A stretch of 64,000 nt of DNA from Cyanophora paradoxa CCMP329 (GCA_004431415.1 QPMI01000157.1:186001-250000), one strand, 5' to 3'; shown: positions 851 through 64,000, counted from the first letter of the stretch. The notes: a model not told the origin generated them from the sequence alone. Made by a program: numbers and translations.

Positions 851-891
<41 letters not shown>

Positions 892-19887: not shown

Positions 19888-19959
19888 GTAGTGATATTAA
19901 AGACAACAAAGCAATCACAAATCAAAGATACAGTAAACTAGCACAAAATATATACAGAA

Positions 19960-38858: not shown

Positions 38859-38921
38859 TATGTCGTCCCCAAATTATGTCGCCGAAAACTTGACATGACG
38901 ACATAATTTGGGGACGACATA
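38859..38921. repeat. Perfect 23-bp inverted repeat with 17-nt spacer
   Basis: tatgtcgtccccaaattatgtcg (38859-38881) / cgacataatttggggacgacata (38899-38921). Confidence 0.9.
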
Positions 38922-41283: not shown

Positions 41284-41561
41284 GGGCCCGCGTTTCCGCA
41301 GCCTCGAGCAAAAAAATGTAAATTGGGCATACTGCCCCACGAAATTATATATGGTAATAAAATCGAATAAACTTTAAACTTTTCGATATTCCACAAACGT
41401 TTCGACAAAACCAAATCAAAAACAAACCATTCACAGTAACCACACAAAACAAAACGTAAAATCTCAGTAAGCCTCAGTAACAACAATCGATGTTATATCA
41501 TAATCTCGGTTATTCCTCATTGATTGTTTCATATAAAAATAATCTGATAATCTGAATAAAA

Positions 41562-41924
41562 ATGGAAACCAAGCCACAACAACGCTTTTACATTTTCTCT
41601 CGATATGATGATCGCGAATCCGTGAAATCAAAAGGAGCAAAATGGGATTTTGAAAAGAAGCTATGGTTTGTTGAAGATGAAAACAGTGAGATCTTCAAAG
41701 AATTCCGAAAACTAACAGAAGACGAAATCAAATACATTAATGTTAAAATGTTTTGTCAAGTTGCTTTCAAAGACATCCAATTAGCGAAATCTTATGGTCT
41801 CAGATGGGACCCAATTCATAAGGGTTGGTATGTTAAAGGAATCCATTATAAAGAAATTTTCAAAGTGTTCAGACCTATCACGAAAATTGTTGAATCGAAA
41901 GATGGTTCATACCTCACAGCCTAA
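41562..41924 (+). CDS. Small protein with two DUF5710-like repeats
   Basis: YDDRESVKSKGAKWDFEKKLWFV and FKDIQLAKSYGLRWDPIHKGWYV match the K..GA.WD...K.W(Y/F)V pattern. Confidence 0.75.
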   Translation: METKPQQRFYIFSRYDDRESVKSKGAKWDFEKKLWFVEDENSEIFKEFRKLTEDEIKYINVKMFCQVAFKDIQLAKSYGLRWDPIHKGWYVKGIHYKEIFKVFRPITKIVESKDGSYLTA

Positions 41925-42979
41925 CGTCTAGTCAACCCGCTTCGTAAATTATACCTCTTCCTAACTACTTTGCTCCTATTGGGCTTGATACCCTCTTTTG
42001 CTACTAATCTATTTACCTTCGTTGTTTTTTTCACTCGCTCCACACGCTTCTGTGTGGGAATCTTAACAATTGCTGCCTTATCTACTTTTTGCAACTCGTT
42101 CAGTTTAAAGTTTCGTTTTACTTCCTTTGGACTCTCTCCCTCATTCTCTTCCAATAAACTAAATCGATTACCTACCTTGCCTGCTACTTTATACACTTGT
42201 TTGCTGTATCTTGCTCCTTCTTTATCGAAAGTCTTCTTTTCAGTTACAGCTCGAACATAATCTCCCTCCTTTACTGTTGGGCTACCTTCTTTAATACGTT
42301 TGTTATGCAATGCATCACGCAAATATATGAACGATTCTTTCTCGTTATTCCCATACACTGCATTGGGTGAATCATTCTTTAGGGAAGTGTGTGGACTGTT
42401 GTTGTAAGTTGCCAGAACCTGTTTGTAATAATCAGTCCATTTTGGGTTCCCACTCGAAACTATTGCTTTTCTCAAATATTGTTTAAAAGTTCTGGTGAAC
42501 CTATCGATAATACCAAGTTTATCACCTACTGTGATGTGGTCATTCTTAGCTACATCAGTGTAGAGTGTAACATTGTTTTCCTCACACCATTTCCTATAAA
42601 TCTCAGCAGAGAACTCATTGTCTCCTGAGATAGCACTAACCTTGCCTGCCTCAACTTTGAACCTGTTGAAAATATCGATTTTCGAATCCTTTGGCTTGAA
42701 AGGGTATACAAATGCTTTCCGACTCAATATATCGACAAATCCCAGCATCCTATCCACTCCATGTGTTGCTGTCTTGTAGCTTTTGAAATAAATCACATCA
42801 ACCTGAAAGGAATTGGGTGGAGCAATGATCCGCAAGAAAGACTTTTGCTTTTTGGGCTTCTTAAAGATCTGCTCAAGCTCTTGATTTTTAAAACGCTTTC
42901 TTAGTTCTTCCTCATCAAATGTGATACCTTCTTTAATCAATTTCTGTCGATACTTGGTATAACTCAGAACCTGGTCCAT
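41921..42979 (-). CDS. Retrovirus-like (rve) integrase of element A
   Basis: FQVDVIYF, VDILSRKAFVYP, SGDNEF, IIDRFTRTFK, YNNSPHTSL...SP, GDYVR...FDKEG..YS; intact 352 aa. Confidence 0.92.
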   Translation of the reverse strand: MDQVLSYTKYRQKLIKEGITFDEEELRKRFKNQELEQIFKKPKKQKSFLRIIAPPNSFQVDVIYFKSYKTATHGVDRMLGFVDILSRKAFVYPFKPKDSKIDIFNRFKVEAGKVSAISGDNEFSAEIYRKWCEENNVTLYTDVAKNDHITVGDKLGIIDRFTRTFKQYLRKAIVSSGNPKWTDYYKQVLATYNNSPHTSLKNDSPNAVYGNNEKESFIYLRDALHNKRIKEGSPTVKEGDYVRAVTEKKTFDKEGARYSKQVYKVAGKVGNRFSLLEENEGESPKEVKRNFKLNELQKVDKAAIVKIPTQKRVERVKKTTKVNRLVAKEGIKPNRSKVVRKRYNLRSGLTRR

Positions 42980-42984
42980 CCTTA

Positions 42985-45267
42985 TTATAGTGTTGTTTTT
43001 GTTTTATAGTGTCCAATCGCAAGAGTAGTATAGAGGTCCTCACAAAGATACCTCTTAGTATCGAGCGCATTGAATGCCTTTTCTTCATTTCCTGCGTTGT
43101 TACCTCGTGGTTCTTTGATCGGAAACCTCGAACTGTTACTTTCTCCCGCTCCTTCATTGGATACATGACAGTGTTGTAGAATTGTAGGAACTCTAACCTA
43201 TTCTGCACTACTGACCGCTGAACTCCCTTCAACTTCTTAACCTTACTATCAATAACATCAGCTTCCGTAGCATTCGACTTCACTCTTAACAAATCCTTCA
43301 ACTTGTCAGCAATCACCTGTTTTACATTTTCTTCTGATCCCAGAGCCTTAACATTCAACTCCTTCTCGTAGGAGTATGCTTTTGGTTTGTAACCAGCAAA
43401 CCTTGTAACGAGATAATCACCACAATCATCCTTGAACAAACCGGGAACCTTTTTATTTTAGGGTTGTAACAGATGTGGGATTTGCTGTAATCAGACTGAT
43501 CAAACCAATGAGAATCCTCAATCATGTCTTTGTAGATATCGTCAGTCTCAATCAGATAATACAGGGAATCTGTATCAGTCATGAGCAGCTTGGCTGATCC
43601 AGGTCCATACTTCACCATGATGTAATCGTAATGGAAACGATACATGATTAGTTTGGACAGATCCAAGATAGCCTGACCAACATAAATGGGTTTATCCAAC
43701 ATAATAGAACCCTTATAGAACTCTAAAGCAGTAAGATTCTCATTGATAATCTTCACTGTCTTCAACAATGGATTGCCGTTGTGTTTGAGCTGCACCCTGG
43801 GATCGTTGCAAAGCTTTATGTTACTTCGCTTGCGAACGTTCTCCATGGTCTTTCCGAAAACTGAGTTATTCATGAGTTTGTAGAAATCTTTCTCGAAATC
43901 ATTACGAGCTTGCGTCCGCAGTCCGGTATTGAAATCGATGTATGGTCTCAGCCACTCAGATTGATCATACATAATCCCACGATGAACCTTTGTTACCTTC
44001 AATCCTTTTGAGATGTAGTACTGCAAGTTTTTGATGTGTAGGATGTAATTGGTCTTGTTCATCAGATTGGGAACCAACTTACGAGTCTGGGGTAGTTTTT
44101 CATCACCAATCATTTCAAGCTGTGTTGGTGAAATCATTGACTTGGTGATTATTAGAGATTCGGGAGCAAGAGGTAAATCACTGTGAAGATCATGTAGGTG
44201 TTCTGGATATTCCAAGTCAACCTCCAAAGTTGCACCTCTATCACCTTCCACATCAAAGCCCATATAATCGAAATTCTCGATGTCATCAATCCACTCAAAT
44301 CCACCTCTGGGTAGCTTGAAACTCATCGCTTTCCCATACAGATTGTTGGCATCCCAAGTGGTGATATACTTTGTTGACTTTGATGGATCATAAGACTTCA
44401 TGTAGGGGTTATTAGCCTCTGCATAACGATTGGGAACCATGCAAACACCTCCACGAATTCCAAGTTCAAAGAATCTATACATTTCAGGGTCACTCAATTG
44501 CTCCAACTCCACACCTGTATATTTCAACATCGCGAACCATGACAGGTGAGGAGCTGAAATGAAATGGATAGGATCGATCTTATAATTACTGTAGCAAACA
44601 TTGCGGAATGTATTGAAAACGTCAGCAAGCAGAGCAACATCAGTAGAAAGATAGATATCGTGATAATCTCCGAGAGTTTTGCAGTTGAAAGCGTCCCATA
44701 CCCTCTGGCAATGCTTGTAGTCGGAGTCACTTAATTCAGTATCATTGAGTTTCGAGTAGAAAGCTTCTTTGGGAGGTAATTGGGTCTCACTGAGTTTCTC
44801 GAAGCTATCCAGGTAGTCGTAAGGGAAGTGTCCCTTTTGCATCAGTAGCTCTCGCTGTTCCTGTGAGTAATTTACAGAATCACACCACTCATTGGTGAAT
44901 TTGAAATTATTCTTACTGAGATTCTTTACCAGACCATCAAGGCTCGAAGCCATGAAATTCAAAGAGTCCATGAACTTGTATGGTCCCATATCGAATGCTA
45001 TGAACTTCTCAAAATTCTGGGCAATGCAACGAATTTCCTTACCAGGTTCATTGAAATTCAAAGCCTTCAGAATATAGTGTCCATCGTAACCTTTTAGATT
45101 GTGGAACACAACTGGGATCTTTGGATTGATCTTTCGTTTCAGATTGCAAGTATTGCAAGCTGCTCCAATGTAGTCTCCTGTAACGTGGTCGTGGTCTCTA
45201 ACCTTTTTAACTTGATATGTGTTACCATTATCATCGGTTACAGTAGCTCCAAACTCATCTCCACAGA
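42985..45267 (-). pseudogene. Protein-primed DNA polymerase B of element A, C-terminal part (interrupted by element B)
   Basis: KVRDHDHVTG...ACNTCNL, FHNLKGYDGH, FMDSLNFM, KGHFPYDY, GIRGG, WDANNLYG, YKLMNNSVFGKTMEN, MTDTDS, FKDD, DTKRY...TLAIGHY*. Two homopolymer frameshifts near 43455 and 43080. Confidence 0.93.
45263..45267 (+). repeat. Left target-site duplication ACAGA of element B
   Basis: ctcc-ACAGA-agcactgcg; an identical pentamer lies at 56938-56942. Confidence 0.88.
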
Positions 45268-45640
45268 AGCACTGCGCCGTGTCTCCAAAACAATACCCGC
45301 GAAAAAATCAAAAACAAATCAGAAAACAAACCATTCCCAGTAACCCAATCTTGAATATCAGTAAATCTCAGTAAGCCTCAGTAACAAAAATTTAATTAAT
45401 CGACGTTATATCATAATCTCGATTAATTATATCTTATCGCAGTTATATCTTTTTTATGCGCCGTGTCTCCAAAACAATTCCCAAGAAAAACAAACCATTC
45501 ACAGTAACCCAATTCCAAATCTCACTAAATCTCAGTAAGCCTCAGTAACAAAAATCGAATTTATCGAAGTTATATCTTAAATCTTATTTATCGAAGTTAT
45601 ATCATTATCTCGATTAATTATATTTAATCGAAGTTATATC
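45268..45640 (+). repeat. Left terminal inverted repeat of element B (373 bp)
   Basis: Reverse complement of 56560-56932 with one visible mismatch. Built from about 185-bp units starting (t)gcgccgtgtctcc and multiple atcgaagttatatc motifs. Confidence 0.95.
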
Positions 45641-45667
45641 CTTTTTATCCGCCGTGTCTCCCATCAA

Positions 45668-46213
45668 TTAGTCATCATCATCAATAAACTGATACTTATT
45701 TGCTATCATTCCATTTTTATGTGGTAAGCGATATGTATAATTTGTTTTACTTCCAGTTGCAACAGTGCCTTGAAATGTTTGCAAATCCGTTTTGTAGTAA
45801 ATATATGGGTTTTCAGATTCGTAATATCCCATATTCTCAATAATCTTTTTTCCAATAGAAACGACATGTTTTTCATCTCCACCACAAAAGAATATTATAA
45901 CACCAAATGCAGTATCTGAAGCTCGTGAATTGCGTTTACCTGTGGAGCATTTCATTGATGGTATACCCAATTTGCCTTCATCGAAACATTTCTTAAAATG
46001 CTCCCATTTTTTAGGTATCTCTTCTTTTGGATAGAAGACCATCCATTTTCCACTATCATGTAATCCAAAGTAGTCAGCATTTTCCAACACACATTCTGCC
46101 AATGTTTGACCAGGCTTTATTGTAACTGCTTCCACTTCATCATCAATTTCAGGGTATTGTGACTCATCATTATCATAATAAATCCAATACTCTGTCTTCG
46201 TTTCGAAACCCAT
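45668..46213 (-). CDS. DUF1917/Bles03-like (eIF4E-like fold) protein
   Basis: SGKWMVF...W...G.LG...KCST...VIIFF...IYYKTD..T..G pattern characteristic of DUF1917. Confidence 0.7.
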   Translation of the reverse strand: MGFETKTEYWIYYDNDESQYPEIDDEVEAVTIKPGQTLAECVLENADYFGLHDSGKWMVFYPKEEIPKKWEHFKKCFDEGKLGIPSMKCSTGKRNSRASDTAFGVIIFFCGGDEKHVVSIGKKIIENMGYYESENPYIYYKTDLQTFQGTVATGSKTNYTYRLPHKNGMIANKYQFIDDDD

Positions 46214-46254
46214 TTTTAAACTTACTGATATCTATTTCCTCCTGTCAATTTTTG

Positions 46255-47312
46255 TCAACGTTTCGTTAAACCACTTCTCAGATTGTATCTTCTCCTTATT
46301 ACATTACTCCGATTGGGTTTTATGCCTTCCTTTGCTACCAATCGATTCACTTTATTCGTCTTATTAACCTGCTGAATTCGTTTTTGTGATGGGATCTTAA
46401 TGATATCATCTTTATTCACCTTTTGCAATTCTTGCTTCTTAAACCTCCTCTTCACTTCTTTTGTTTCCTCACCATCATTATCTTCAAGGACTTTGAAACG
46501 ATTCCTATCAGCCTTTGCAACAGTGTAGACCTTCTGACTGAATTGCGCCCCTTCTTTTTCAAATAACCCCTTTGGTTGCAAAACTCGAACTGTGTCTCCT
46601 GGTTTCACTTGATTAGTATCAGCCTCCTTTACACGATTGTTGTGAACAGTATCCCTCATGTAAATAAATAACTGTTTATCTTCATTTGTATACACTGCAT
46701 TCGGTGAGTCATTTTTCAATGCCGAATGGGGACTGCTATTATACAAGTCAATTACATCACTAAGTAGATCGATCCATTTCGTGGTTCCTTTTGCTGTCAT
46801 CGTTTTCCTGAGATATTGTTTGAAAGTCCTAGTGAACCTATCAATTATCCCCAGTTTATCTCCTACTGTGATGTGGTCATCCTTTGCCACATCTGTGTAA
46901 AGCATTACACCATGTTCACTGCACCAATTTCGGTATACTGCCTGGGAAAACTCATTATCCCAGAGAGAGCATTAACTTTGCCTGCATCTTGCTTGAACCT
47001 ATTTAAAATGCTCGGGATCTCACTGCTGTTTTTAAAAGGATAAACAAATCCTTTGCGACTAAGTATGTCTACGAAACTGAGCATTTTGAAAATGCCATTG
47101 TTGGCAGTCTGAAACCCTCTGAAATATGTTATATCGATTTGAAACGATCTAGGCTTTGCTACTATGCGAAGAAACGATTTGGTTTCCTTGGTTTCTTGTA
47201 GATTTGCTGGAGTTCTGAGTTTTTGAATTTCTTTTTCAACTCTTTTTCATCAAACTCACTTTTCATTAATCAGTTTCTGCCTATACTTTTTGAATGATAA
47301 TACACTATCCAT
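46255..47312 (-). CDS. rve integrase of element B (5' half broken by single-base deletions)
   Basis: Starts MDSVLSFKKYRQKLI (ATG 47312, homologous to MDQVLSYTKYRQKLI). Contains FQIDITYF, VDILSRKGFVYP, GDNEF, IIDRFTRTFK and ends RRRYNLRSGLTKR. Confidence 0.88.
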
Positions 47313-50300
47313 TATTGGGCGGCACAGTTACACTTAATATGAGAGAGGAAACAATTTTTGGTAATGTGAGCCACAGCATTATTAATTCGATCTACCGAAA
47401 TATCTTCAAAGTCCATGGCATTGTAGCATCGCAGGCAATGCCATACTGCTTCCCATATCGCTGCTTGATCCAATCCCATGTGATGTAATCATGCTCATCG
47501 AATTGTCTGTTTGCTGCTCGGTCCTGATCCTTGTAAGTCGATATTTTCTCGTTATTCTCTCTCTTCCACACCTTCCAGTGAGCCATTTCGAAATTATCAT
47601 GGTAAATAACGACATCATCCAGCCTTGTGGTTCGTGTGAGAGCAACATAGAGCCACTTCTTTGACACAAATGGCGCCCCGTTTCGAACACAACTACCCTG
47701 TTCCCTTTGCAGCGAATCGTATCACCTTGAACAACATGGCAGGTGTTTGCATAAGCCAGGGCGAAATGTTTGACTGCATCCCTGCTGAGAACAATCTCAT
47801 CCTTCTTGTTGGCAATGTCAGCAATTATGAAACTGTCCTTTGAGAGCTTGACAATCTTGTAGACAAATCCATTATGAACTATTTTTCCACCCTTTGCAAT
47901 ACGAGTCTTTGCAACAACTTTGATGCCGCCAGCATAAATGGAAACATTATCCCCGTAGTTCATTTTGTGAAGGGCTAGGTTCACCTCTGCACCCTTGCGG
48001 TTTGTGTAAACAATGCCAATATCAGTCTTTTCCAATTCGTCCACAACCTTGAACCCATACTTCGCAAGGACCTCACTTACACTCAAACCTTTCTCGAACA
48101 AATCGATTCGAATCTGCTCAACCTTTCTGCGATCTTCCTCAGTCTCATGGCGCTTGTTCACTTGGAGTAACAATTCGTTGGGGAACAGGCGATGGAGGAT
48201 ATCGAGGTAATACTCATCTTGGTCAACACTCATATCTTGGATGGGTGGGTTTTGGTACGGGTCCCCTGTGGCGATGTATACCTTATCTGGGAACTGCTCA
48301 TTCATGATGTGGTCCAAGGCTGCCAGTTCCCCAATCTTAAACTGACAGATCTCATCAATAACAATGCAATCAAATTCTACCAAACCAGAGGCATTTCCTC
48401 CTACAATTTCATCCATGTTCGACTCATCGATTTTGAGATGAAGGGCATCATAGATTGTCTTCACATTTTTCAATCCTTGCTCTTTCATTTCTTTCACTCG
48501 CTTGTTGGTTGGAACAATATAGAGGGGATTTTGGAAACACTTTCCTCCATATTCAACTGTCATGTAAGTCTTTCCGACTCCCGGAACTGCTCCGAGAAGA
48601 ACCCATCGTTTTTGTGTAGCCAGCAAATCACAAATCGCGGTTGTGTCATACTCATCAACCACAGAGTGTTTGGTATAACTGTAGTTCTCGATTTTCACAA
48701 AGTCAGTCGCTCTCTCAAACTTTCCGTAACGAATTCGTTTTGCCTCGAGGTCTTTCTTCTCACCTGAAAACTTTTTAGAAAAATTGGGGCAGCATTTCAC
48801 ACTGAATTTTCCAATATTCTCAAAGGCATTGCGATCGAATGACATTGGGGCAATGGGTTCGTAAGCGATCCCATAAACACAATCGGTGTTCAAAGCAAGT
48901 GGTCGGATTTGCTGTTTAGCGAGTTCGACACACTTCTCATACATACACATCCTCATAATTGACAAGAGGGTAGTGTACAATGGCATGAAGCCATCAATGA
49001 GCTGCTTTTCTGCTACCTGATTGACATAGTAGATATGGGGTTCGGTCATCTCTTCCTCACACAGAACGAACTCTGTCTCCTCATAAGTGGCAAGAGTCTC
49101 ACCAAAGAGGTAAATCTTAACCTCCCCTCCATTCTGTTTCTGGAACTCGATCGCATCGTCTCTGTTGTGGAAAATGGTGGTTTTCACTCTGCTATTTCTT
49201 TGCTTTCCAGTTTGCCCAATCGCACTCACTAAGATCTGCTTCTTATCAACAGGATCGAGGTCGCTATCTAAGATTCGAGCAACTGTGTTGCCTGCAAGGT
49301 TGGGAATGAGTTTGTAAGGTCGCAGAACCGCTTTGATGGAGATGTCATCCTTGAAATCCTCGAAATGCTTTTTGAGAACCAAACCAGGAACGACATTGTA
49401 CTTGGAATCAATGATCATCCTCTTGTATCTGTTGTAGGTGTTTGCTTCGTACTCCTTTCCGTTCTTGTCTTTGGCTTTGAAAAAGTATTTGTCGTCCAGT
49501 TTCACGTAATAGAAGCTGTATTCCTCGATTTGCTCTGCATCTGTGATTGTCACACTCTTGAAGACATCGAACTTGCTGAGAACAGGAACGAATTTGATCA
49601 TCAAGGCTACAATGTAAGGGTATGCTTTGCACATATCGAACTCGTAAATATCTGTGTTATAGCGAATTTCATCAAAGGTCTCCTCATCCACATCAAAGAG
49701 ACCACGAAGGGCAGTCTGCACTCCATTCTTGAATGCATTTATGGTTTGCTCATTGTAAGTACTCTTGTTGGAAGTGTTGATTAGAGACCTATACATATCC
49801 AGATTTAGTTTCTCGAACTTATCTCTGTACTCAGCATTCTTGAAGCTAATCTCGAAAGCTGTTTCCACATCTGTATCGTTACCAGGTGGGGTCACGACAA
49901 CATCCTTATCGTCAATAGTGAAACGAATATGGGTTGCCTTTCCGATTTGGGAGAACCCAGGTTGCACCTGATAATTATGCACCACAATGAACTCTCTGAG
50001 AAGTTCATCCAGTGAACCACCATAGCAGATTCGAATGCTCGATTGGTTCTTTGGATTGTCAGACCTGACAATTCTCAGAATGTCGTCTGGATTTGTGGCA
50101 AACTCCTTGAACCTTCTTTGCTTTATAATCTTGTAACGAGAACTGAGTGGAACATTGGTATCTTTTGGCTTGGAGCCATTGAAGGACTGTGTGAGAGCCT
50201 TAATATTGTGATTTAACAAATACATGTGACCATTCTCAATCTTCACATATGCAACAGAAGGGGTCAAGTGTGTGTTTCTGGTCTTGGGCAGGAAAGTCAG

Positions 50301-51401
50301 TTCAGGGACAGGGGTCCTGTCGTCCTTTCCAATTGTAACCATGCCTAGGCGCAGTGGGTCAAGAACCTTCTCCGAAATGGACTTGAAAGAAATGCCCCAA
50401 TCATCTCCTTCAACAGGGTCTCGCCCATTCACCATCTTAAAGAGTCCGTTATAAGACCAATCGATGCGCTTGTATTTCCCTTTGGTCTTAGCCTTCTCAA
50501 ATGCTCCTCCAAACCATTTGATGAGGACATCGAAAACACACTTCCCAACCTTGAATGAGTCTCCTTTCAAGAACATTTCCTTGAATGTGGTGGCTTGGGG
50601 GTTCCCTTCGTTTTTAATGAAATTCGAAATAATCATTGGAGCGTTTGTATTGTCTCTGAGGACTTGTTCATTTCTTGGGATGTATTCTTCATTATCTGTC
50701 GTGATGACTCTTTCAATTGTCATAATATCGGGGTAGGTATCTTGCTCAATTAGTTTTAGGTAGCGGAAATCTTGATTGGTCGAGTTAAACTCAATAACTG
50801 CTGCAATAAATTCAGCAATGACAGTCCCCTCAACACATGGGAACGTATTGAAGGTGGATTGAACCAGACCGAGAGCATTCAGAAAAGCTGCCTTGGTACA
50901 CTGGATACCAAAGGGGCGATTGTTCCGAAGCCTCTTCGATTCAATGTAGGTCACACCATTCTCAGTGACCCTGTTTGCATTTGCAGGGGCTTGTTCTCCC
51001 TCTTGCAACTCACGGAAGAGTCTCACATTCAGGGTGACCATGTTTCCAGGTGAGTTTTCAACAAACTCACGGAGGTTAGCAATCATCTGCTGGAAAGGAG
51101 TCAAGCGCTTCCGCTCTCTCGCTTGCTCCGCTTTCTTGTTTTGCTTCTCAACATTCTTAGCGGCTCTCTCAGCCCTCTTCTCCTTCTTCTCCTGCTTGCG
51201 ATACAAACGAGGCTCTACGATACCTCTCAGTGTATCTCTGATATCAATCAACTTTGGAATTCTAATTGCTTTGAAAGTAAATTCTCTCAAGAAATAGATA
51301 TCCTGCTCTCGGGTCAATTTGTCTTCTACTTTTGCTTGCATGTAGTAACCGAGAATCTCATCCTGCAAATTCTTCGAAATTCGATTACTTGGTCGAGGCA
51401 T
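47312..51401 (-). CDS. Fusion of divergent PolB-like domain, superfamily 1 helicase and C-terminal HNH-type nuclease domain
   Basis: PolB-like motifs EFDMCKAYP, KQILVSAIG, NTDCV. SF1 motifs GAVPGVGKT, VIDEI, GDPYQNPP, NKRH, YANTCHVVQGDT, WLYVALTR. After two frameshifts comes CLRC...ISVDRINNAVAHITKNCFLSHIKCN*. The stop overlaps the integrase start (TAATG). Confidence 0.85.
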
Positions 51402-51641
51402 TTCTTTGTTCACTCTATTAATATATACCTACAAAAGTTTTCTTTAAATACTTTTATACTCGCGTCAAATTTTACCGGCAAAACCAAAAGTCTCCAACAA
51501 AATATATTTAGTCGAGGGCATTCATAAAAATAACAAAGGGTTGGCTCGATCATTGAACTCTAAAAATAACAGAAAGATTTTATTTGTGGTTCCAGCGCGG
51601 TTCCACGGGTTTCTCAGAGCAGATCGCGCTGAGAAAAACGA

Positions 51642-51899
51642 TTAACAGAGATATTTCGATTTGCGACCACGGTTAGAATACGGGACACCATAGAGATACT
51701 TCACAAAGCAGACTGCATTGGAAGCATAGAGACGCTGGGAACTCTCAACGATTCTCATGGCTCTGTAACACTCATCAGTATGGTATAAATCACGCATTTG
51801 CTTCGCGAATTTCGCATTATACTTTTTTAAATATTCCTGACCTTTTTCAGTTTTACGATAACGGTAAGTAGCACGCTTCTGAGCCTCACTGATTGGCAT
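51642..51899 (-). CDS. Small basic putative DNA-binding protein (element B)
   Basis: MPISEAQKRATYRYRKTEKG...RGRKSKY; homologue at 58919..59182. Confidence 0.7.
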   Translation of the reverse strand: MPISEAQKRATYRYRKTEKGQEYLKKYNAKFAKQMRDLYHTDECYRAMRIVESSQRLYASNAVCFVKYLYGVPYSNRGRKSKYLC

Positions 51900-52259
51900 T
51901 TTGTCCTTTTCTACTCTCTTAATATATGTTAAGAAATCTTTAAGTAGTTTTTCTGTCTGTATATAGCGATTAAACTCCTGTCAAATTTTGGTCCCAATCG
52001 CAGAGCATCCAATTCTGAAAGAAGATGCTGGAAAAATGATAAAGCCACCGAAACCAAATAGGCTCACTTGTCGGCTGCAAGTTTCTACCACTGAACCCGG
52101 TAGAACAGGTGATTAAAGTGATATCTGTGGATAATTCACTTCGCTCTACAACGCCTCCATAAAAATGAAGAAGTTTTGAGCCTACGGGATAAGATTGGTT
52201 ACGTAGCGCTAACAATGTTCAAGATTTTTTTAATTCGGAAATGATGCGTGAGCCGTCCC

Positions 52260-53007
52260 TTAACGGCGATAACCAGGTTTAATACCGAGCTTGGCAAACC
52301 CTGAGACCATTGGGGCAGCATTTGGAATCGAGTTGACTGGATCAGCCTGCGAAGTGGCAACCCGAAGGATCGATTTATTGAGGACCGGCAAATCCGTTTT
52401 GTTGGACTCTTGATAATCGATGGTCTTTGCAATCAATTCGGCTGGCGATTCTTTTGCAACATGAACAGGTTCAGGGATGACTTCATGGTTACTTCTGGTT
52501 TCTTCTCAACCTTTTCCTTTGTGATTGGCTGTTCCTTGATCCTGTTTTCGTTTTTGGTCTCTGCTGCGATACCATCAACAAGACTCTTAGCATACTGGTA
52601 TGTCACAGATTTCAGTCCACCAGTGGTTGAACGAATAAAGTAGCGGTTGCGATGGTCTTTCTCGGAATAGGTTGAGTAGAGTCGCTCACCACCATCAAGC
52701 AGTTTCAGCAGTGTTGATGATGAGGCAACCTTGTCCTTTGTCGATGATTTGAACTGTCCTTTCTTGATTCCTCGTTTGGCTCCAGGCATGCGGTTCAGTG
52801 GGACTTGATCAACCAGGGCATTATCATCATTTGAGTTTGAAGTAAGCGCAATTGTGTGAGCATTCATGGTCTGGTGAACATTTTATCGAGATCACCAGTT
52901 CCATATGCAGCGGTTCCTTTTGATTTCTTAAACTGTTTCCGTTCTGGTTCCGCTTGCTCAACTGGTTTGGCTAAGAAATTCTTTGGCTGGGTCTTTCGAG
53001 TTGCCAT
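52260..53007 (-). CDS. Lys-rich putative virion core protein (element B, frameshifted)
   Basis: Near-identical to the intact 59539..60300; starts MATRKTQPKNFLAKP. Confidence 0.65.
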
Positions 53008-53043
53008 TTGTAATATCGAGACAAATTTATTCTACAGTATTTC

Positions 53044-53940
53044 CTATGACCGTGAGAACGGCAAGTAGAGTCCTCCAACTCTTTAATGACATTCTTCAAT
53101 GCTTTCTTGGTCAGATCTTTATCATCTTCCGTAATGAGTTCAAGTGTCATCGACCAGTCAGTGGTAATATCCGTTTCAGCACCATTCCAGTATGTGAGAC
53201 GAACTTTTAGCGTTTCCACTTCCACTAAACCATTTTGCTCATGCAGGATCATGGAATTATTCGATGAATCGTATTTTAGCAGACTGCCTACCGTTTGATC
53301 AATCTCGATTTTTGCGAGGGCTTTATCATCACTGGTATTCTTGCTAACATAATTGCCTTTGAGTGGATCGACATGTAGAAGGATGTAAGAGTTAAACAGA
53401 AGATCAAGCGGTATAGCACTGTCAATGTAGTAATTATAAGTATTAGCTCCAACTGTTACAGGTGAATCGAGCAGGGCAGAAGCGTAACCATTTTCAGAAC
53501 TGTCAGGTCTGCGATCTGGGAAACCAAGGAAGTTCGCTAAAATCCGACTTCCAAAGGTGAGGGTAAATGTTGCATCGCACATGAACCTTAGAAACATGGT
53601 AACAGGATCATATGTAACGTAGAAATGGCGAGTATAGGTAGTTCCTGCTGCACCATACACCTGTGAAGCTAATTTGGCATTTAGAAGATTCACCAAACTA
53701 TCCGAAGTATATGTCCTTTTGAAATAGTGTTATTCTTAGTTTTAATTACATCCCCAGCATCATAGGTTCCTGTAATCAAACTTCCATTTTCGCTGAGATT
53801 GTAAATGTTATTGAACATCTCAAAGTTAGTCACTCTGCAGGCTCTCACATTTTGGATTGCATGGGAATTTTATAAGTGAAGTTCGTTGGGGTTCCATCAT
53901 CTCGGTCCCTGGAATCAATATTAAGGTAATGACGCGTCAT
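53044..53940 (-). CDS. Minor capsid (penton-like) protein of element B, frameshifted
   Basis: Reconstructed start MTRHYLNIDSRDR.DGTPTNF; C-terminal LAKI...LKVRLTYWNG...WSMTLEL typical of single-jelly-roll minor capsid proteins; divergent from the MCP. Confidence 0.75.
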
Positions 53941-53992
53941 TCTGTTTAATAAAGCATTTTAAAAATTTCTTTTGGTATTTTAAACATAAGAG
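53941..53992. promoter_or_regulatory. 52-bp AT-rich divergent promoter region between penton and MCP
   Basis: Identical to 61224-61275 in element A. Confidence 0.6.
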
Positions 53993-55219
53993 ATGGCACT
54001 CACTGGAACTACCCTTAAGGAACTCCTCGTTACTCCCGGTTCTGATCAAATTTATCTTTCCCCTGGTCTCCAAATCGGAACCAACCCCAAGTACAAACCA
54101 TTCCTCGAGCAAGTTCGTCCCCGAGGCAATACTTTTGGCTTTAAGAATACCGCTTACTTTGATCTACCTCGCAAGCAACTCCTTGCTGGTGTTTCGCTCT
54201 ATTTCAAGATTGCCACTGGTGGTGGTGTAGCCTGCACCCTCCCTAATGGTGGTTCTTCCTTTATTAATGAGGTCCGCTTTGTTCATGGTGGTTTCAAGTA
54301 TATCATCCCTGGTGACTGGATTACTGTTAACGCTCTGATTGATAATGATCATGCTACAATGAGCAGCATGTATGCTTCTCTCGGTTACTTCAAAGAACTT
54401 GATCGTGAAAGCACAGATGAGGCTATGGAATACATCGTTAAAATCCCGGCTGCTTTCTGGGATGATGCCTATTTTCCACTATGCACTCTGGCTGATATGC
54501 CAACAATCGAGGTTGATTTCCGTGATGCTGCAATTGTCAAAGTTCCTGCCGGTGGATCTGTTACCTTTTCAGATTGCTCCCTGATCTGTCAATTCGTAAA
54601 CATCGCTTCGGCTGAGGCTGAGACACTTTTGAAAATGGCAAATGAACAAGGTGGCATTCGCATTCCGATCACAGAGGTCATCCACAAGAAGACACGAGCG
54701 CTCAAAACCGCTGATGCTGGTGAATCGGTTGAGGTTACACTCGCTAATGTTTCCGGACTGGTTCATTCAATTCTCATGACTGTTCGAGAGGTGAACAAAC
54801 TAAATACCTACACTCACTCGGATTTCTGTGGTCATGTATCGGATGTTAAGATCGATCAGTTCCAGATCTTCCACAACAATCGCTCCCTCGATATCTCCAA
54901 CAAACCCATTTCTGGTTTCCTCTCGGCTATCAATCACATTCCTTCTCATTACAAGGGTGTTACTGTTGGCAATACTACTTATGGATTCGAGAATGGAAAT
55001 ATTTACGGAATCGTTCTTTCCAAATCTGGAAAAGATTCGCTTCGGAACAGTGTTATGGGTTACCAGGATTTCTTCAACAGCAGTTCCAGTTACATGGATC
55101 TCACTGTTTCGGGATGCACTGATGCTGCTCCTGTTCAGGTTGATATCTATGCCCTACGACACAATGTTATGGTCCTAAATGGCTACAACATCTCTACCCT
55201 GAAAGTCTCGAACTTCTAA
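53993..55219 (+). CDS. Double-jelly-roll major capsid protein (element B)
   Basis: 408 aa. N-terminal G..L..L...G.D.IYL...FG....F.LPR..LL and C-terminal VDIYALRHNVMVLNG resemble NCLDV-type/PLV MCPs. Flanked by penton and A32 ATPase. Confidence 0.88.
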   Translation: MALTGTTLKELLVTPGSDQIYLSPGLQIGTNPKYKPFLEQVRPRGNTFGFKNTAYFDLPRKQLLAGVSLYFKIATGGGVACTLPNGGSSFINEVRFVHGGFKYIIPGDWITVNALIDNDHATMSSMYASLGYFKELDRESTDEAMEYIVKIPAAFWDDAYFPLCTLADMPTIEVDFRDAAIVKVPAGGSVTFSDCSLICQFVNIASAEAETLLKMANEQGGIRIPITEVIHKKTRALKTADAGESVEVTLANVSGLVHSILMTVREVNKLNTYTHSDFCGHVSDVKIDQFQIFHNNRSLDISNKPISGFLSAINHIPSHYKGVTVGNTTYGFENGNIYGIVLSKSGKDSLRNSVMGYQDFFNSSSSYMDLTVSGCTDAAPVQVDIYALRHNVMVLNGYNISTLKVSNF

Positions 55220-55237
55220 GCGCGGTTTCGCCCGCGC
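55220..55237 (+). terminator. GC-rich hairpin immediately after MCP stop
   Basis: gcgcgg-tttcgc-ccgcgc in an AT-rich background; absent at the equivalent position in element A. Confidence 0.35.
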
Positions 55238-55365
55238 GCAACGACCGAAGGAAGTAGATTCTTTTCTTTCGTTAGAGTAGGAAGCGCAAAAGTAGTAGGG
55301 TCGGCATGACAAGCATGCCTTGCATGCGCTAAGGGGTTTATTTTGTTTTTTATCTTATTACTGTA

Positions 55366-56131
55366 ATGGATAACACAGGAATGGATATTGATTTGAACGA
55401 CATCCCAGAGTTTGAGCCTGCAAGAACAGTAAAGTTAAGCACGCGTTTTTTACTTTGCGGGCGCAGCAACTCGGGAAAAACAACCTACTGCAAATATCTA
55501 CTTTATGAACTGAGGGATAAGATCGATCAGATTGTAGTTTTTAGTTCTACTGCATTTACAGGTCAGTTCAGAGATATAACGCATCCTGATAATATCTATG
55601 AGGAATGGACGATAATGTAGTAGTGAAACTCATTAGCATGCAAAAGAAACGAATTGAAAATAATGAAAAACGCAACAATCTTGTTATTATACTTGATGAT
55701 ATGATCGGTTCCAATTTAGATATGCATAATTCGGCTGTGTTATCTAAACTGATCACGACAGCCGTCATTATTCGATTACAGTAATTATTAATACTCAACG
55801 TTTATGCTCTATTTCTACTACAATTCGTCGAAATGTTGAGTTCGTAGTATTTTTCAATATTCTTGGGAATGAGAAGGAGTTTAACTGCGCTTATGATGAG
55901 TATAATGGGGGTCTTGATAAAAAGACCTACAAAGAGTTACATAAAATGTGGGGTTACAATTACCAAACAGTCATAACTGGATTGCAAGGGTATGATATCA
56001 AAGTATACACAGACCGCGCAATATTAACAGATGATGATATGAAAGGCTTTAAGAAGTTTGTTAAGAGACGAGCGATAAAAAAGAGAGAATCAATACGAGT
56101 TAGTAATGAACCCACAACAATAACGGTTTAG
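55366..56131 (+). CDS. A32/FtsK-like genome packaging ATPase (element B, frameshifted)
   Basis: Walker A GRSNSGKT, Walker B IILDD and RHY motif; colinear with the intact 62582..63340. Confidence 0.88.
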
Positions 56132-56152
56132 ATAACAAGGAATGTTTGAAAC

Positions 56153-56446
56153 TCATTTCGTGTCCATTGCGTTTTTCAAAATCAATTTCCTACGTAATTT
56201 ACAGCGTGTATGGTTTACATCGTGTCTTTTTTCTAATATTTGTGAGTATTGGTGTGTGTTCATAGTTTCCATGGTAGATAAGAAGCCTTTCATAAGATTT
56301 GTTTTATATTTGCTTGGTAGTTTGTTAACATTTAAACCAGCACTATTAGCGGTTTTCTCAATCAATTTGCTTAATTGTTGCTCATCTGGAATTATGGGCA
56401 TATCTTGAAGAATCTCTTCAACATCTTCTGGTATTATGGTGGTCAT
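56153..56446 (-). CDS. 97-aa hypothetical protein unique to element B
   Basis: Clean ATG-start ORF between the ATPase and the right TIR, preceded by an AAAAATGA motif. Confidence 0.55.
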   Translation of the reverse strand: MTTIIPEDVEEILQDMPIIPDEQQLSKLIEKTANSAGLNVNKLPSKYKTNLMKGFLSTMETMNTHQYSQILEKRHDVNHTRCKLRRKLILKNAMDTK

Positions 56447-56559
56447 TTACAGATCGATATGGTTAATTTAAAAACAGTCGTCATTTTTTTGGATCGGTCA
56501 AAATTTGATTACGTTTAAAATTGATATAACTTCGATTGAATATAACTAATCGAGATATT

Positions 56560-56937
56560 GATATAACTTCGATTAAATATAATTAATCGAGATAATGATA
56601 TAACTTCGATAAATAAGATTTAAGATATAACTTCGATAAATTCGATTTTTGTTACTGAGGCTTACTGAGATTTAGTGAGATTTGGAATTGGGTTACTGTG
56701 AATGGTTTGTTTTTCTTGGGAATTGTTTTGGAGACACGGCGCATAAAAAAGATATAACTGCGATAAGATATAATTAATCGAGATTATGATATAACGTCGA
56801 TTAATTAAATTTTTGTTACTGAGGCTTACTGAGATTTACTGATATTCAAGATTGGGTTACTGGGAATGGTTTGTTTTCTGATTTGTTTTTGATTTTTTCG
56901 CGGGTATTTTTTTGGAGACACGGCGCAGTGCTGAGCT
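56560..56937 (-). repeat. Right terminal inverted repeat of element B (378 bp)
   Basis: Reverse complement of the left TIR plus 5 extra terminal bases (GAGCT). Confidence 0.95.
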
Positions 56938-58686
56938 ACAGATGTAGCAAGCAACAGAATCTCTGTAATCCTCTTTGTGCCATTGTTCCATAACCATTGG
57001 GGCAACATGTCTAAGCTTCTCAAGTAAATCGGATTCAATCGTTTTCAGTGTCTCCATAAAGTGCTGTGTAACCTCATCATCGTTCTCTGGGTTCTCCTTT
57101 CGATACAATACCTGTTTGATAATCTCATCGTTGTGGATAACCATGATTTTGTATCCACTGGGAATGTGTTTCTGGTAGACTGCAGTGTTTTCACCTCGTG
57201 TCTCATCCACCTTTTGCAATATACATTCAAAGTCAGCAACAACAAACATTGGATGCCATACAGTCTTGTCAACATGTCTCTTTGGGTCCCACTTGGTCTT
57301 AGATCCGCTTGGTGGCATTGTGTCAACTGTTGCATTTGGTCGATCGTAACACTTGTTGTGTTTAATGTGGGTCTCCAATACCGTTTCACTGGTGAACCCT
57401 CTCAAACAAGCTTTACAGAAATGGCGAGTTCCATGGTGCGAATTGGATATTAACCTTGACATGCTAGAAATGTAACCATAGTGGGTTTTTTCGTTGACAG
57501 TCCACAGAAGAATGTCAATTGTAAGATGTTGTTTAGATGGATCCTTACAGATATGGACTGGAACGATATGTGATCGATCGACCATATACACATTGATTGG
57601 TCGACCAATCATTTTTGATGCTCGTTCGTACTGACGAGGATCATTCTTGAATGGGAACTCAAACTTATTCCAATTGAACTCATTCTCATACTTCTTGTAT
57701 CGCTTTACATCGTATCGGTGTTTATGAGATAGCTCATGTTGATGTAGTCCAATAGTTACCGCCCATGCGAAACATTTATTATCTTTGTTCTGTGGATTAA
57801 TCACAGCTTTACGCTTTTTTATTCCTGGTGGGAGGTCAATATAGGAGCTACCTGCGAGTGGCTGATAAGTAAGAATCTGCAAGCGAACTGTTAAGATGTT
57901 TTCTAGCTTCCAACTATCAGGTGAAGTGAGAACCTCCTGCAATGCATCAATTGATTCATCAACAGTATCAACAATCTCTTGATCATTGACAAGAAGGTAG
58001 AATGGGGTGGTCCATTGCATGGTTCTTATTTCTCCAGTTGCCACTTTCACATATCTCGCCATGCTGTAGAGGTTATACTTAATACCTCGTCTGTTACGAA
58101 GAGCATCTCGAAAACGATTGTAGAAGGCATCCCAACCAACAACCTTATCGATAAACTCATGGGCAGAAGCGATTTTATTTTTGGTCTGGTTCCTCCAAGT
58201 TACTTCACTCACGAGATTATTCATAGCCTGCATTACCTCTGCCTCCTCTCGTTGTCTCTTCTCATCCTCTCTCTGCTGTTTTGCCTCCTTTGCTCTTTGC
58301 TCCTTAGACTTCTGCTTCTCCACATTCTTAGCGGTTCTTCCTGCTTTCTTCTGCTTCTTTTGCTGCTTCCTTTCAGCTCTCTTGTCTCGTTTTTCAGCGA
58401 TCCTCTCTGCTTTGGTCTTCTTATTTCCACCTTCAATAGCCTCAATGTTACCGAATCTCTCGATTTCATCCTGCTCATTCAGTCTGCCCTCACCCCTGGC
58501 AATAATACCATCAATTGTATCGCTTATGTCCTTCAGACCAGCAGATCGAAGTCTCTTAATGAAGGCAAAGTAACCCAATGCGTTAAATTGCTCTTCATTT
58601 ATGATTCCGGCACCAAGAAGGTAACCAAGCTTTGCTAGCATTCCTTGTCTCTTTCTCGCATTCTGAATACTTACTGCGCGAGGCAT
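56938..58686 (-). pseudogene. Protein-primed DNA polymerase B of element A, N-terminal part
   Basis: GSSYIDLP..IK.RKAVINPQNKDNKCFAWAV, INVY, HYGYI..MSRL, C..CL..F...L..H, exonuclease VADFECI. The frame runs into the TIR at ...CYIC. 56938-56942 is the right TSD. Confidence 0.93.
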
Positions 58687-58918
58687 TTTCACTTTTATAT
58701 ATACTCTATATTTTATTTCCTTAAGTCATTTTATACTCGCGTCAAATTTTACCGGCAAAACCAAAAGTCTCCAACAAAATAAATTCAGTCGAGGGCATTT
58801 ATAAAAATAACAAAGGGTTGGCTCGATCATCGAACTCTAAAAATAACAGAAAGATTTATAGTTTTGCTTCCAGCGCGGTTTCCGCGGGTTCTCAGAGCAA
58901 TCGCGCTGAGAAAAACGA

Positions 58919-59182: not shown

Positions 59183-59538
59183 TCTTGTCCTTTCTGCTCT
59201 CTTAATATATGTTAAGAAATCTTTAAGTAGTTTTTATGTCGTGTATATATTCTTTGTGAGAACCCAATCAAATTTTGGTCCCAATCGCATTGCATCCAGT
59301 TCGAAAGAAGATGCTGGAAAAATGATAAAGCCACCGATACCCAAAAAGGTTCACTTGTCGGCTGCAAGTTTCTACCACTGAACCCGGTAGAACGGGTGAT
59401 TAAAGTGATTTACCTATGGATATTTCACTTCGCTCTACAACGCCTTCCATAAAAATGAAAAAGTGTTTGAGCCTACGGGATAAGATTTGTTACGTAGCGC
59501 TAACAATGTTCAAGATTTTTTAAATTCGGAAATGATCC

Positions 59539-60300: not shown

Positions 60301-60336
60301 TTGTAATATTGAAACAAAATTATTCTACAGTATTTC

Positions 60337-61223: not shown

Positions 61224-61275
61224 TCTGTTTAATAAAGCATTTTAAAAATTTCTTTTGGTATTTTAAACATAAGAG

Positions 61276-62502
61276 ATGGCACTCACTGGAACTACCCTGA
61301 AGGAACTCCTCGTAACTCCCGGTTCCGATCAAATTTATCTTTCCCCTGGTCTCCAAATCGGAACCAACCCCAAATACAAACCATTCCTCGAGCAAGTTCG
61401 TCCCCGAGGCAACACTTTTGGCTTCAAGAATACCGCTTACTTTGATCTACCTCGCAAGCAACTCCTTGCTGGTGTTTCGCTCTATTTCAAGATTGCCACT
61501 GGTGGTGGTGTAGCCTGCACCCTCCCCAATGGTGGTTCTTCTTTTATTAATGAGGTCCGTTTCGTTCATGGTGGTTTCAAGTATATTATCCCTGGTGATT
61601 GGATCACTGTAAACGCCCTGGTCGATAATGATCACGCTACCATGAGCAGCATGTATGCTTCTCTCGGTTACTTCAAAGAGACAGATCGTGAAAGCACAGA
61701 TGAAGCAATGGAATACATCGTTAGAATCCCCGCTGCTTTCTGGGATGATGCTTACTTTCCATTATGTACGCTGGCGGATATGCCAACGATTGAGGTGGAT
61801 TTCCGTGATGCTGGGATAGTCAAAGTTCCTGCCGGTGGATCTGTTACCTTTGCGGATTGCTCCCTGATCTGCCAATTCGTAAACATCGCTTCGGCTGAGG
61901 CTGAGACACTCCTAAAGATGGCAAACGAACAAGGTGGCATTCGCATCCCGATCACAGAGGTCATTCACAAGAAGACCCGAGCGCTCAAAACCGCTGATGC
62001 TGGTGAATCTGTTGAGGTTACACTCGCTAATGTTTCTGGTCTGGTTCACTCGATTCTGATGACTGTTCGAGAGGTGAACAAACTTAACACCTACACTCAC
62101 TCGGATTTCTGCGGTCATGAATCTGCTGTTAAGATTGATCAGTTCCAGATCTTCCACAACAATCGCTCCCTGGATATATCTAACAAACCCATTTCCGGTT
62201 TCCTCTCTGCTGTCAATCACATTCCTTCTCACTACAAGGGTGTTACTGTGGGCAATACCACGTACGGATTCGAGTCTGGAAATGTTTATGGAATTGTTCT
62301 TTCCAAGTCCGGAAAAGATTCGCTTCGGAACTCGGTTATGGGTTACCAGGATTTCTTCAACAGCAGCTCGAGTTACATGGATCTCACTGTTTCGGGATGC
62401 ACTGATGCTGCTCCTGTTCAGGTTGACATCTATGCCCTACGACACAATGTTATGGTCCTAAATGGCTACAACATCTCTACCCTGAAAGTCTCGAACTTCT
62501 AA
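61276..62502 (+). CDS. Double-jelly-roll major capsid protein (element A)
   Basis: 408 aa, with 10 substitutions relative to 53993..55219. Confidence 0.88.
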   Translation: MALTGTTLKELLVTPGSDQIYLSPGLQIGTNPKYKPFLEQVRPRGNTFGFKNTAYFDLPRKQLLAGVSLYFKIATGGGVACTLPNGGSSFINEVRFVHGGFKYIIPGDWITVNALVDNDHATMSSMYASLGYFKETDRESTDEAMEYIVRIPAAFWDDAYFPLCTLADMPTIEVDFRDAGIVKVPAGGSVTFADCSLICQFVNIASAEAETLLKMANEQGGIRIPITEVIHKKTRALKTADAGESVEVTLANVSGLVHSILMTVREVNKLNTYTHSDFCGHESAVKIDQFQIFHNNRSLDISNKPISGFLSAVNHIPSHYKGVTVGNTTYGFESGNVYGIVLSKSGKDSLRNSVMGYQDFFNSSSSYMDLTVSGCTDAAPVQVDIYALRHNVMVLNGYNISTLKVSNF

Positions 62503-62581
62503 AGTTCTTTTCTTTCGTTAGAGTAGGAAGCGCAAAATTAGTAGGTAAGGGGTTTATTTTGTTTTTTATCTTATTACTGTA

Positions 62582-63340
62582 ATGGATAACACAGTAAACT
62601 TAGATGATATTCCGGAGTTCGATCCGAGTAAGACAGTTCGAATCCCAACGAGAATTTTAAATGTTGGTCGCTCCAATACAGGTAAGACAATGTTTACAAA
62701 ATACTTACTTTACGAGCTTCGTGACAAGATAGATCAGATTGTAATATTTAGTTCCACAGCTTTTACTGGGCAATTCAATGACATCACCCATCCAGATAAC
62801 ATCTATGAGGAATGGGATGATAACATTGTTTTGAGATTGATCAGTATGCAAAAGAAACGAATCGAGAACAATGAGAAACGAAATAACTTAGTAATCATAC
62901 TCGATGACATGATAGGTTCCAATTTGGATATGCATAATTCGGCTGTGTTATCTAAATTGGTCACGAGCGGCCGCCATTATTCAATTTCTGTGATATTTAA
63001 TGTTCAGCGTTTATGCTCAATTTCTACTACCATTCGTCGTAATGTGGAGTTCGTTGTATTTTTCAATATACTTGGGAATGAAAAGGAATTCAATTGCGCC
63101 TTTGATGAGTACAATGGTGGAATGGATAAGAAGACCTACAAGGAATTGCATAGACTATGGGGTTATAATTACCAAACTGTCATAGCTAGCCTGCAAGGTT
63201 ATGATATCAAGACCTATACTGATAGAGCAGTACTAACTGATGATGATATAAAGGGCTTTAAGAAGTTTGTGAAGAGAAAAGCAATTAAAAGGGGTCAGAT
63301 GGCTCGGATCCAACGAGAAATGACCACAATCAGTGTGTGA
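62582..63340 (+). CDS. A32/FtsK-like genome packaging ATPase (element A)
   Basis: GRSNTGKT, VIILDD, TSGRHYSISVIFNVQ, IRRN; intact 252 aa. Confidence 0.93.
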   Translation: MDNTVNLDDIPEFDPSKTVRIPTRILNVGRSNTGKTMFTKYLLYELRDKIDQIVIFSSTAFTGQFNDITHPDNIYEEWDDNIVLRLISMQKKRIENNEKRNNLVIILDDMIGSNLDMHNSAVLSKLVTSGRHYSISVIFNVQRLCSISTTIRRNVEFVVFFNILGNEKEFNCAFDEYNGGMDKKTYKELHRLWGYNYQTVIASLQGYDIKTYTDRAVLTDDDIKGFKKFVKRKAIKRGQMARIQREMTTISV

Positions 63341-63586
63341 AAGGACGATTTGTGAGAAATATTGTATGGCAAGGTAGCTTGAAATAATACGATGATTACG
63401 TAGTTGCGTAGAGCTTAACAAGCGCTTCAAAACGCTATGCAAAACGTTGCGAGTTGACCATCTGGTGGTGAGATACAAGCGTTTGAAGATGCCGATAATC
63501 GATTTACCGAAACTTCGGTGAAACGTGAGCGAAACTTGAACCTTGTGAGATCATATACCCTACTACGGTTTATTCCCCGGGTTTTC

Positions 63587-63661
63587 ATGGCGCATTTTAT
63601 GGCGCATTTTATGGCGCATTTTATGGTGCATTTTATGGCGCAATTTATGGCGCATTTAATG
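63587..63661 (+). repeat. 12-bp tandem repeat (ATGGCGCATTTT) x6
   Basis: Directly visible, with few substitutions. Confidence 0.9.
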
Positions 63662-63728
63662 AAAAATCACTACTCTGTGGCATGGACCAATAGAAATTGA
63701 GCAAAGTAAACATTTAATTTATAACTTT

Positions 63729-63810
63729 TATATCACATTATATCTCACATAGAATCTCACATATAATATCACATTTTATCTCACATTTAATATCACATTT
63801 TATCTCACAT
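63729..63810 (+). repeat. Degenerate ~10-11-bp tandem repeat (ATATCACAT/ATCTCACAT core)
   Basis: About eight copies of the tcacat core. Confidence 0.8.
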
Positions 63811-64000
63811 CGAAACCTGGGGAGAAGTTGAAGGGGATACATTGAAAGTCAGTGAGCCAATCAGATTGCGTCACACATATATATACATATACATCATGAC
63901 AATATACACATCGCCGTGATCGTCATAATCTCCCGAGTCACGTGGTATGTCATATATATTATATACATATGCATCGTCATTATGACGTCATATATATATA

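Follow-up and report, generated by a model that had tools for sequence, protein, structure and literature searches.

We analysed a 64,000-nt stretch of the Cyanophora paradoxa CCMP329 assembly (QPMI01000157.1:186001-250000, hereafter the window) that holds two sibling proviruses, A and B, of the polinton-like virus (PLV) kind; these two elements, read from the assembly consensus of this one window, are our sample. Positions 1-20000 are 76% GC and carry eukaryotic genes with introns (adaptin, ferric reductase). From about 41.3 kb to 63.8 kb the GC content falls to 39-41% and the genes are intronless; we take the host to be a GC-rich protist. The layout of the open reading frames (ORFs) bears out the common gene order proposed in an initial annotation of this DNA, namely accessory gene, integrase, replicase, small basic protein, core protein, putative penton, divergent major capsid protein (MCP) and ATPase. 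Both genomes are small (B 11,670 bp, A about 10.8 kb, 8-9 genes), and B has a counterpart for every gene of A except the accessory gene. B lies nested within A, the same slot holds two types of replicase, and the sequence identity between the elements forms a patchwork.

B is inserted in the protein-primed polymerase (pPolB) gene of A, on the minus strand, and splits that gene in two. The strongest repeat of the window is the inverted pair made by the terminal inverted repeats (TIRs) of B, which are identical at 372 of 373 positions, and B is flanked by a 5-bp target-site duplication (TSD), ACAGA (Table 1). Once B (11,670 bp) and a single ACAGA are subtracted, the two halves of pPolB fall in one frame, and the Cys-x-x-Cys...RDHDH motif that is split by B is uninterrupted in the pPolB of a related contig (L001). 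With 0-5 nt of slack allowed, 0.8% of random site pairs show a 5-mer match of this kind, and about 0.3% do so when the frame condition is added. Because the TIRs, the TSD and the reading frame agree, the elements are nested, and a side-by-side layout is ruled out. In the literature consulted, no PLV is described as inserted within a sibling, although figures and supplements may hold cases.

The insertion point (45200-45262 / 56943-56980) coincides with an EndoVII-like Cys motif within the pPolB of A (Pfam Endonuclease_7, E 0.016). The two ends of B are unequal (45268-45276, 56929-56937): read inward, the right end has AGCTC-AGCAC and the left end AGCAC alone, a 5-nt near-repeat present twice against once, which we take to be reminiscent of jump-back initiation in protein-primed replication.

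Our comparisons support two non-orthologous replicases in the same slot, which is nearly equal in length in the two elements (A 4,027 nt, B 4,090 nt). The replicase of A is a pPolB (Pfam DNA_pol_B_2, PF03175, E 3e-18) with the motifs DANNLYG, KLMNNSVFG and DTDS, and is 41-52% identical to the pPolBs of three IMG/VR contigs (L001-L003). An rve integrase directly follows pPolB in 3/3 of these related metagenomic PLV contigs (L001 8429-13212, L002 1518-6527, L003 8354-13233); their structural genes differ, with no match to the MCP, penton or ATPase of A. The replicase ORF of B (1331 aa) has an SF1-type helicase domain (AAA_19, E 4e-8, above the cut-off), and its nearest Atlas clusters (0.96-0.98) are viral helicase proteins of 990-1277 aa (Viral_helicase1/AAA_30). 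By eye we also recognise vOTU-like Cys and His motifs and palm-like motifs in the expected order (DMCKAYP at 589, KQILVSAIG at 721 and NTDC at 838, with Asn replacing the first Asp of motif C). The tail, in a shifted frame, shows to the eye a CxxC...DRINN...H...N pattern (PHROG E 0.04) that we take to be HNH-like. The B replicase has 0 relatives in the sequence searches and no meaningful PDB match. Of the replicase types first proposed, the canonical pPolB of A and the SF1 helicase of B are recovered by Pfam, whereas the PolB-like and HNH parts of B are labelled by motif order and published architecture.

Similarity between the two replicases is confined to the N-terminus (A 20-137, B 17-99, 32% identity), where it beats 1000/1000 shuffles at each of three shuffle windows. 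This segment is not present in the pPolBs of L001-L003, and beyond it no similarity between the replicases of A and B is detectable. Full-length orthology is ruled out, since the similarity is limited to a diverged N-terminus. To judge from these alignments, the pPolB and pPolB-S1H alleles would be old within the A/B family, since each keeps an N-terminal segment that is diverged and specific to the family. Upstream of the two replicases the spacer is 92% identical, to about 30 nt from the start codon, and reassortment of the replicase onto a shared backbone is therefore likely.

The degree of divergence differs strongly from gene to gene. Alignment of the MCPs confirms the 10 differences in 408 residues (97.5% identity) counted originally; in the DNA, 87/1227 nt differ (92.9% identical; 68 synonymous and 10 non-synonymous codons). 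Protein identity is 223/246 for the core protein, 204/250 (82%) for the ATPase, 180/251 (72%) for the penton, 225/349 (64%) for the integrase and 43/85 (51%) for the small basic protein; the description of one capsid module in near-identical virions is not confirmed and overstates the likeness. Synonymous difference (pS) is 0.25 in both MCP and core, against 0.66 in penton, 0.76 in ATPase, 0.77 in the small basic gene and 0.90 in integrase, with bootstrap intervals of 0.18-0.32 (MCP, core) and 0.59-0.99 (the four other genes). These four genes are at or near synonymous saturation. Codon bias in the shared genes is weak (effective number of codons, Nc, 46-58), and the difference at four-fold sites expected at saturation is 0.67-0.74 compared with 0.17-0.19 observed in MCP and core; codon bias is thus too weak to be the source of the low MCP and core divergence.

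The intergenic regions had been described as near-identical, and five spacers are indeed 88-99% identical over aligned columns (210/229, 322/346, 33/36, 152/173, 78/79). With gap columns counted, four are 85-87% identical and the MCP-ATPase spacer 53%, the latter because B carries two insertions. These (~36 and ~30 nt, within 55220-55335) are GC-rich, hairpin-forming and missing from A. The spacers are conserved beyond the synonymous sites of MCP. The regions past the ATPase and past the integrase align at 62% and are taken as unrelated. RNA structure as the reason for spacer conservation is ruled out by ordinary folding (z -0.9 to +0.2 against mononucleotide shuffles). Steps in identity fall near gene ends, with more steps within the core, penton and MCP genes, and the MCP differences are clustered non-randomly (1/200 permutations). 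The patchwork implies that recent and old tracts alternate at least six times. Gene conversion after insertion was rejected as the origin of the MCP likeness, because the differences are mostly synonymous and hence arose under selection. The sources consulted describe no PLVs in which intergenic regions are conserved while genes are replaced; the figures and supplements of these sources may hold cases.

Table 1. Features of elements A and B, with positions counted from the first base of the window
Feature	Coordinates	Strand	Basis or remark
A left part	41320..45262	.	End set by GC step from 58-76% to about 30%; GC 0.39
A sub-terminal repeat unit	41406..41512	+	76-80% to unit in B TIR; exact 25-mer at 41459
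A accessory gene, DUF5710	41562..41924	+	Pfam PF18974 E 4e-14
A rve-type integrase, 352 aa, intact	41921..42979	-	27-31% to integrases beside pPolB in L001-L003
A pPolB C-terminal part (EndoVII-like insert, exonuclease, palm), two frameshifts near end	42985..45262	-	52% to L001 pPolB
Left TSD copy (ACAGA)	45263..45267	+	Sequence match
Element B, 11,670 bp, inside pPolB of A	45268..56937	.	TIRs, TSD
B left TIR, 373 bp, internally repeated unit	45268..45640	+	372/373 identical to right TIR
B accessory gene (Bles03/DUF1917-like)	45668..46213	-	Pfam PF08939 E 1e-6
B rve-type integrase, three frameshifts	46255..47312	-	64% to A integrase; rve_3 E 0.005 (weak)
B replicase (N-terminal segment common with A, vOTU-like, palm-like, SF1 helicase, HNH-like tail), two frameshifts near end	47312..51401	-	
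B replicase/small-gene spacer	51402..51641	.	210/229 identical to A 58687-58918
B small basic protein, 85 aa	51642..51899	-	51% to A; K+R 0.22
B small-gene/core spacer	51900..52259	.	322/346 identical to A 59183-59538
B putative core protein, two frameshifts	52260..53007	-	91% to A; label positional
B putative penton, two frameshifts	53046..53818	-	72% to A; label positional
B MCP, 408 aa, intact	53993..55219	+	Comparison with A MCP
B A32-type packaging ATPase, two frameshifts	55366..56131	+	82% to A
B-only ORF, 97 aa, no family (Pfam, PHROGs)	56153..56446	-	ORF
B right TIR and 5 extra terminal bases	56560..56937	-	TIR proper 56560-56932
Right TSD copy	56938..56942	+	Sequence match
A pPolB N-terminal part	56938..58686	-	27% to L001-L003 pPolB from residue ~196; residues 20-137 common with B replicase
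A small basic protein, 87 aa	58919..59182	-	ORF
A putative core protein, 253 aa	59539..60300	-	ORF; label positional
A putative penton, 254 aa	60337..61101	-	ORF; label positional
A MCP, 408 aa	61276..62502	+	Atlas 0.98 to capsid-containing clusters; weak PDB matches to two MCPs
A A32-type packaging ATPase, 252 aa	62582..63340	+	Pfam Pox_A32 E 1e-15
A right end, two 12-bp tandem arrays (63583-63661, 63726-63810)	63341..63830	.	Not an inverted copy of left end

The ends of A differ from those of B. The left unit of A matches the unit in the B TIRs with a local score of 116 (null maximum 44 in 100 shuffles), and the 25-nt motif common to the A left end and the B TIRs has 0 matches in metagenome contigs. 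The left and right ends of A show no match in inverted comparison (score 22, null mean 26), and a search for a plausible TSD around A found none. With a B-type unit on the left and an unrelated right end, A could be a truncated element or a recombinant at its ends. The A integrase matches those of L001-L003 at E 1e-19 to 1e-22; it has no match in Pfam, and the integrase search returned 0 loci.

The MCP belongs to a divergent lineage. Among 1.84 billion representatives the MCP has five relatives, at 24-28% identity, none with a capsid Pfam match and one from a Cyanophora paradoxa proteome; there were 0 matches in viral contigs, metagenome contigs, the word-indexed protein search and PDB. The Atlas clusters nearest to the MCP carry Capsid_N/Capsid_NCLDV on 10-18% of their members, a match of low recognition value, and in a profile search of PDB the two best matches are MCPs (E 0.087 and 0.24, not significant). 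Together these matches weakly indicate a double-jelly-roll capsid. The A32-type ATPase returned 0 loci and 1 protein at 31%. The putative penton and core labels are based on position and motifs; the position and size of the penton fit, neither protein has a Pfam or PHROGs match, and the putative penton has no profile match to the penton-like genes of three other PLV contigs. No Adenain-like maturation protease was found among the 17 + 6 ORFs scanned, where a very divergent version could escape, and no virophage MCP is detectable in A or B.

Outside the elements, a long interspersed nuclear element-like retrotransposon lies on the minus strand at about 21.5-26 kb, within 21472-27350, with endonuclease and reverse transcriptase matches split over several frames. 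Host non-coding DNA at 36300-40600 contains many short palindromes and alternating AT/GC tracts, among them a 114-nt GC-rich imperfect palindrome (38014-38127). An Rfam search of 36000-64000 gave 0 matches.

We consider it probable that B, the provirus that splits the pPolB of its sibling A, and A itself are recombinant mosaics of one family, in which reshuffling combines long-diverged alleles, the two replicase types included, with spacers and an MCP gene held in common. B would be a recent arrival that used its own rve integrase to enter AT-rich DNA, in this case that of a sibling provirus, and so disabled that copy. By analogy, B is predicted to replicate with an active pPolB-S1H fusion of its own, and A-type viruses would replicate with the canonical pPolB; both would package into double-jelly-roll capsids through the A32 ATPase. 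The original replacement of pPolB by pPolB-S1H would be old, with the N-terminal segment retained. The replicase probably moves together with the adjacent integrase as one arm, in agreement with the pPolB-DDE linkage in Barth et al. (10.64898/2026.10.13.758929). New combinations would arise by homologous recombination, with crossovers both in the conserved spacers (80-350 nt) and within the MCP and core tracts, and nesting and co-infection would provide the occasion for it.

Several points weigh against this mosaic account. A profile of four pPolB sequences does not match the B replicase, whose palm is seen by eye, and Pfam does not match its HNH-like tail, likewise seen by eye. The two copies fix neither the direction and order of exchange nor the role of the spacers, as linkers or as constrained promoters, and do not separate recent shared ancestry of the spacers from family-wide linkers. 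The account does not explain why A has neither matching TIRs nor a TSD. It also assumes intact genes, although B has 11 frameshifts and A has 2: nine lie in the six shared genes of B (all 1-2-base deletions, no premature stop), and the B replicase and the A pPolB have two each near their ends. Together with the near-identical TIRs, these frameshifts would fit long-read consensus error, which Bellas et al. 2023 describe for regions of this sort.

A stronger version of the mosaic account, which we regard as doubtful, would make the family a cassette system. The long spacers would act as boundary sequences for one-by-one exchange of genes, pPolB and pPolB-S1H-HNH would be interchangeable behind a shared N-terminal leader, and B-types would insert preferentially into A-type polymerase genes and so disable them.

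The initial annotation favoured one recent swap, confined to the replicase, in viruses otherwise nearly alike, and proposed that helpers of the A type may cross-package or replicate B. The shared slot of near-equal length, the spacer match that reaches almost to the start codon, the close MCPs and the 25-nt terminal motif common to the A left end and the B TIRs are all as such a swap would leave them. The genes on either side of the slot are nevertheless synonymously saturated, penton and ATPase have diverged, and the replicase N-termini are only about 30% identical. Because of these diverged flanks and N-termini, the replicase swap is better seen as one of several patches, with both alleles old, than as a single swap in progress. 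Nor does B look like a satellite: every module is present in it, including integrase, replicase, MCP and ATPase, and it has the youngest ends, whereas the A copy has a split polymerase and no matching TIRs. Tlr1-type palm domains are predicted to be active polymerases by Krupovic et al. 2024 (PMC11161782), though they are read as inactive in a 2016 paper (PMC5499653). A recent replicase-only swap with helper dependence is thus improbable, while cross-packaging of A and B is possible.

Slightly less probable again is an old split of A and B without recent recombination, in which selection on DNA or RNA, for example on promoters read by a helper giant virus, has held MCP, core and spacers. Promoter motifs in virophage upstream regions have been tied to giant viruses (PMC8547959), and the spacers are more conserved than the MCP synonymous sites, as this explanation expects. 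It would have to keep the synonymous difference at 25% throughout the MCP gene (1.2 kb) and the core gene (0.7 kb), next to saturated neighbours and under weak codon bias, and the 230-350-nt spacers contain indels and fold in no unusual way. Least probable of all is an assembly or polishing artefact, either through a chimeric join or because cross-mapped short reads made the multi-copy MCP region uniform: the numerous indel breaks, the mismatched ends of A and the false consensus and frameshifts reported for multi-copy viral insertions (Bellas et al. 2023, PMC10120064) speak for it, but an assembler would not generate a TSD across which the interrupted gene stays in frame, the MCP differences are shaped by selection, and cross-mapping would yield identical copies and cannot bring saturated sequences to 93%.

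A and B form an unusually close pair for asking whether Tlr1-type pPolB-S1H fusions work as polymerases: the fusion in the younger element B fills the slot of a canonical pPolB, with like length and the same upstream spacer. Replicase turnover is visible here at the resolution of gene boundaries, with the conserved spacers as candidate crossover sites, and the MCP adds a capsid lineage for which the databases searched contain no close relative. The surprise is limited, since the general phenomenon has been published before.

The nearest parallel is the set of tandem polisuvirus siblings of Barth, Ha and Aylward (bioRxiv 10.64898/2026.10.13.758929), whose neighbouring genomes likewise differ in replicase while their morphogenetic modules remain syntenic. 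One of their pairs is 70-78% identical in nucleotides and carries PolA versus AEP, and another has identical morphogenetic genes; the replicase is linked to the integrase type, sub-genic domain swaps occur, and tandem integration is proposed as a route. Unlike those pairs, A and B combine pPolB versus pPolB-S1H(-HNH) with rve integrases in both, and B is nested in the polymerase gene of A with a TSD. The greater conservation of spacers than of most genes goes unmentioned in the parts of that study consulted. The Tetraselmis PLVs TsV-S1, S2x and S3b carry S1H-pDNAP, pDNAP or D5 helicase-primase on a common structural module in one host lineage (bioRxiv 10.1101/2025.10.09.676808). Those genomes are 18-26 kb, with 62-66% average nucleotide identity or no nucleotide similarity to TsV-S1, as against 11-12 kb and 93% MCP DNA identity in A and B. 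Module replacement has also been described in cryptophyte PLVs and entomopoxvirus-associated PLVs, and a helicase-pPolB fusion in Oxyrrhis.

B resembles Tlr1 (PMC5499653, PMC11161782, PMC4642659) in its rve integrase, MCP, ATPase, lack of a recognisable protease, and a large protein with vOTU-like and palm-like motifs, an SF1 helicase and an HNH-like tail; an SF1 helicase in a protein of >1000 aa, together with rve integrase, TIRs and TSD, is found in B. Unlike Tlr1, whose tail is GIY-YIG, B has a separate divergent MCP lineage, and no sequence match joins its replicase to known members. Like Polintons/Mavericks (PMC8097293, PMC4642659), A has pPolB, rve integrase, ATPase and MCP, and the ends of B begin with AG and finish with CT; the differences are the protease, which was not found, a TSD of 5 bp and not 6 in B, the lack of matching TIRs in A and an MCP not assignable to the Maverick-Polinton type. 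The EMALEs of Cafeteria (PMC8547959) are similarly low-GC proviruses in a GC-rich protist, with 3-5-bp TSDs, alternative replication modules and recombinant types, but they belong to the mavirus-type virophages, have 17-21 genes and encode a protease, whereas A and B have 8-9 genes and no detectable virophage MCP. The boundary-sequence model of phage mosaicism (PMC3029335) shares the conserved intergenic sequences between exchangeable genes; it concerns tailed phages with boundaries of ~50 bp, whereas the spacers of A and B reach 350 nt in a eukaryotic virus and their role is a proposed one. A and B are divergent members of the known mosaic PLVs, for which replicase turnover on shared capsid modules is already published, and what they add is a divergent capsid lineage (<=28% identity to any match), genomes of 11-12 kb and spacers whose conservation exceeds that of the intervening genes.

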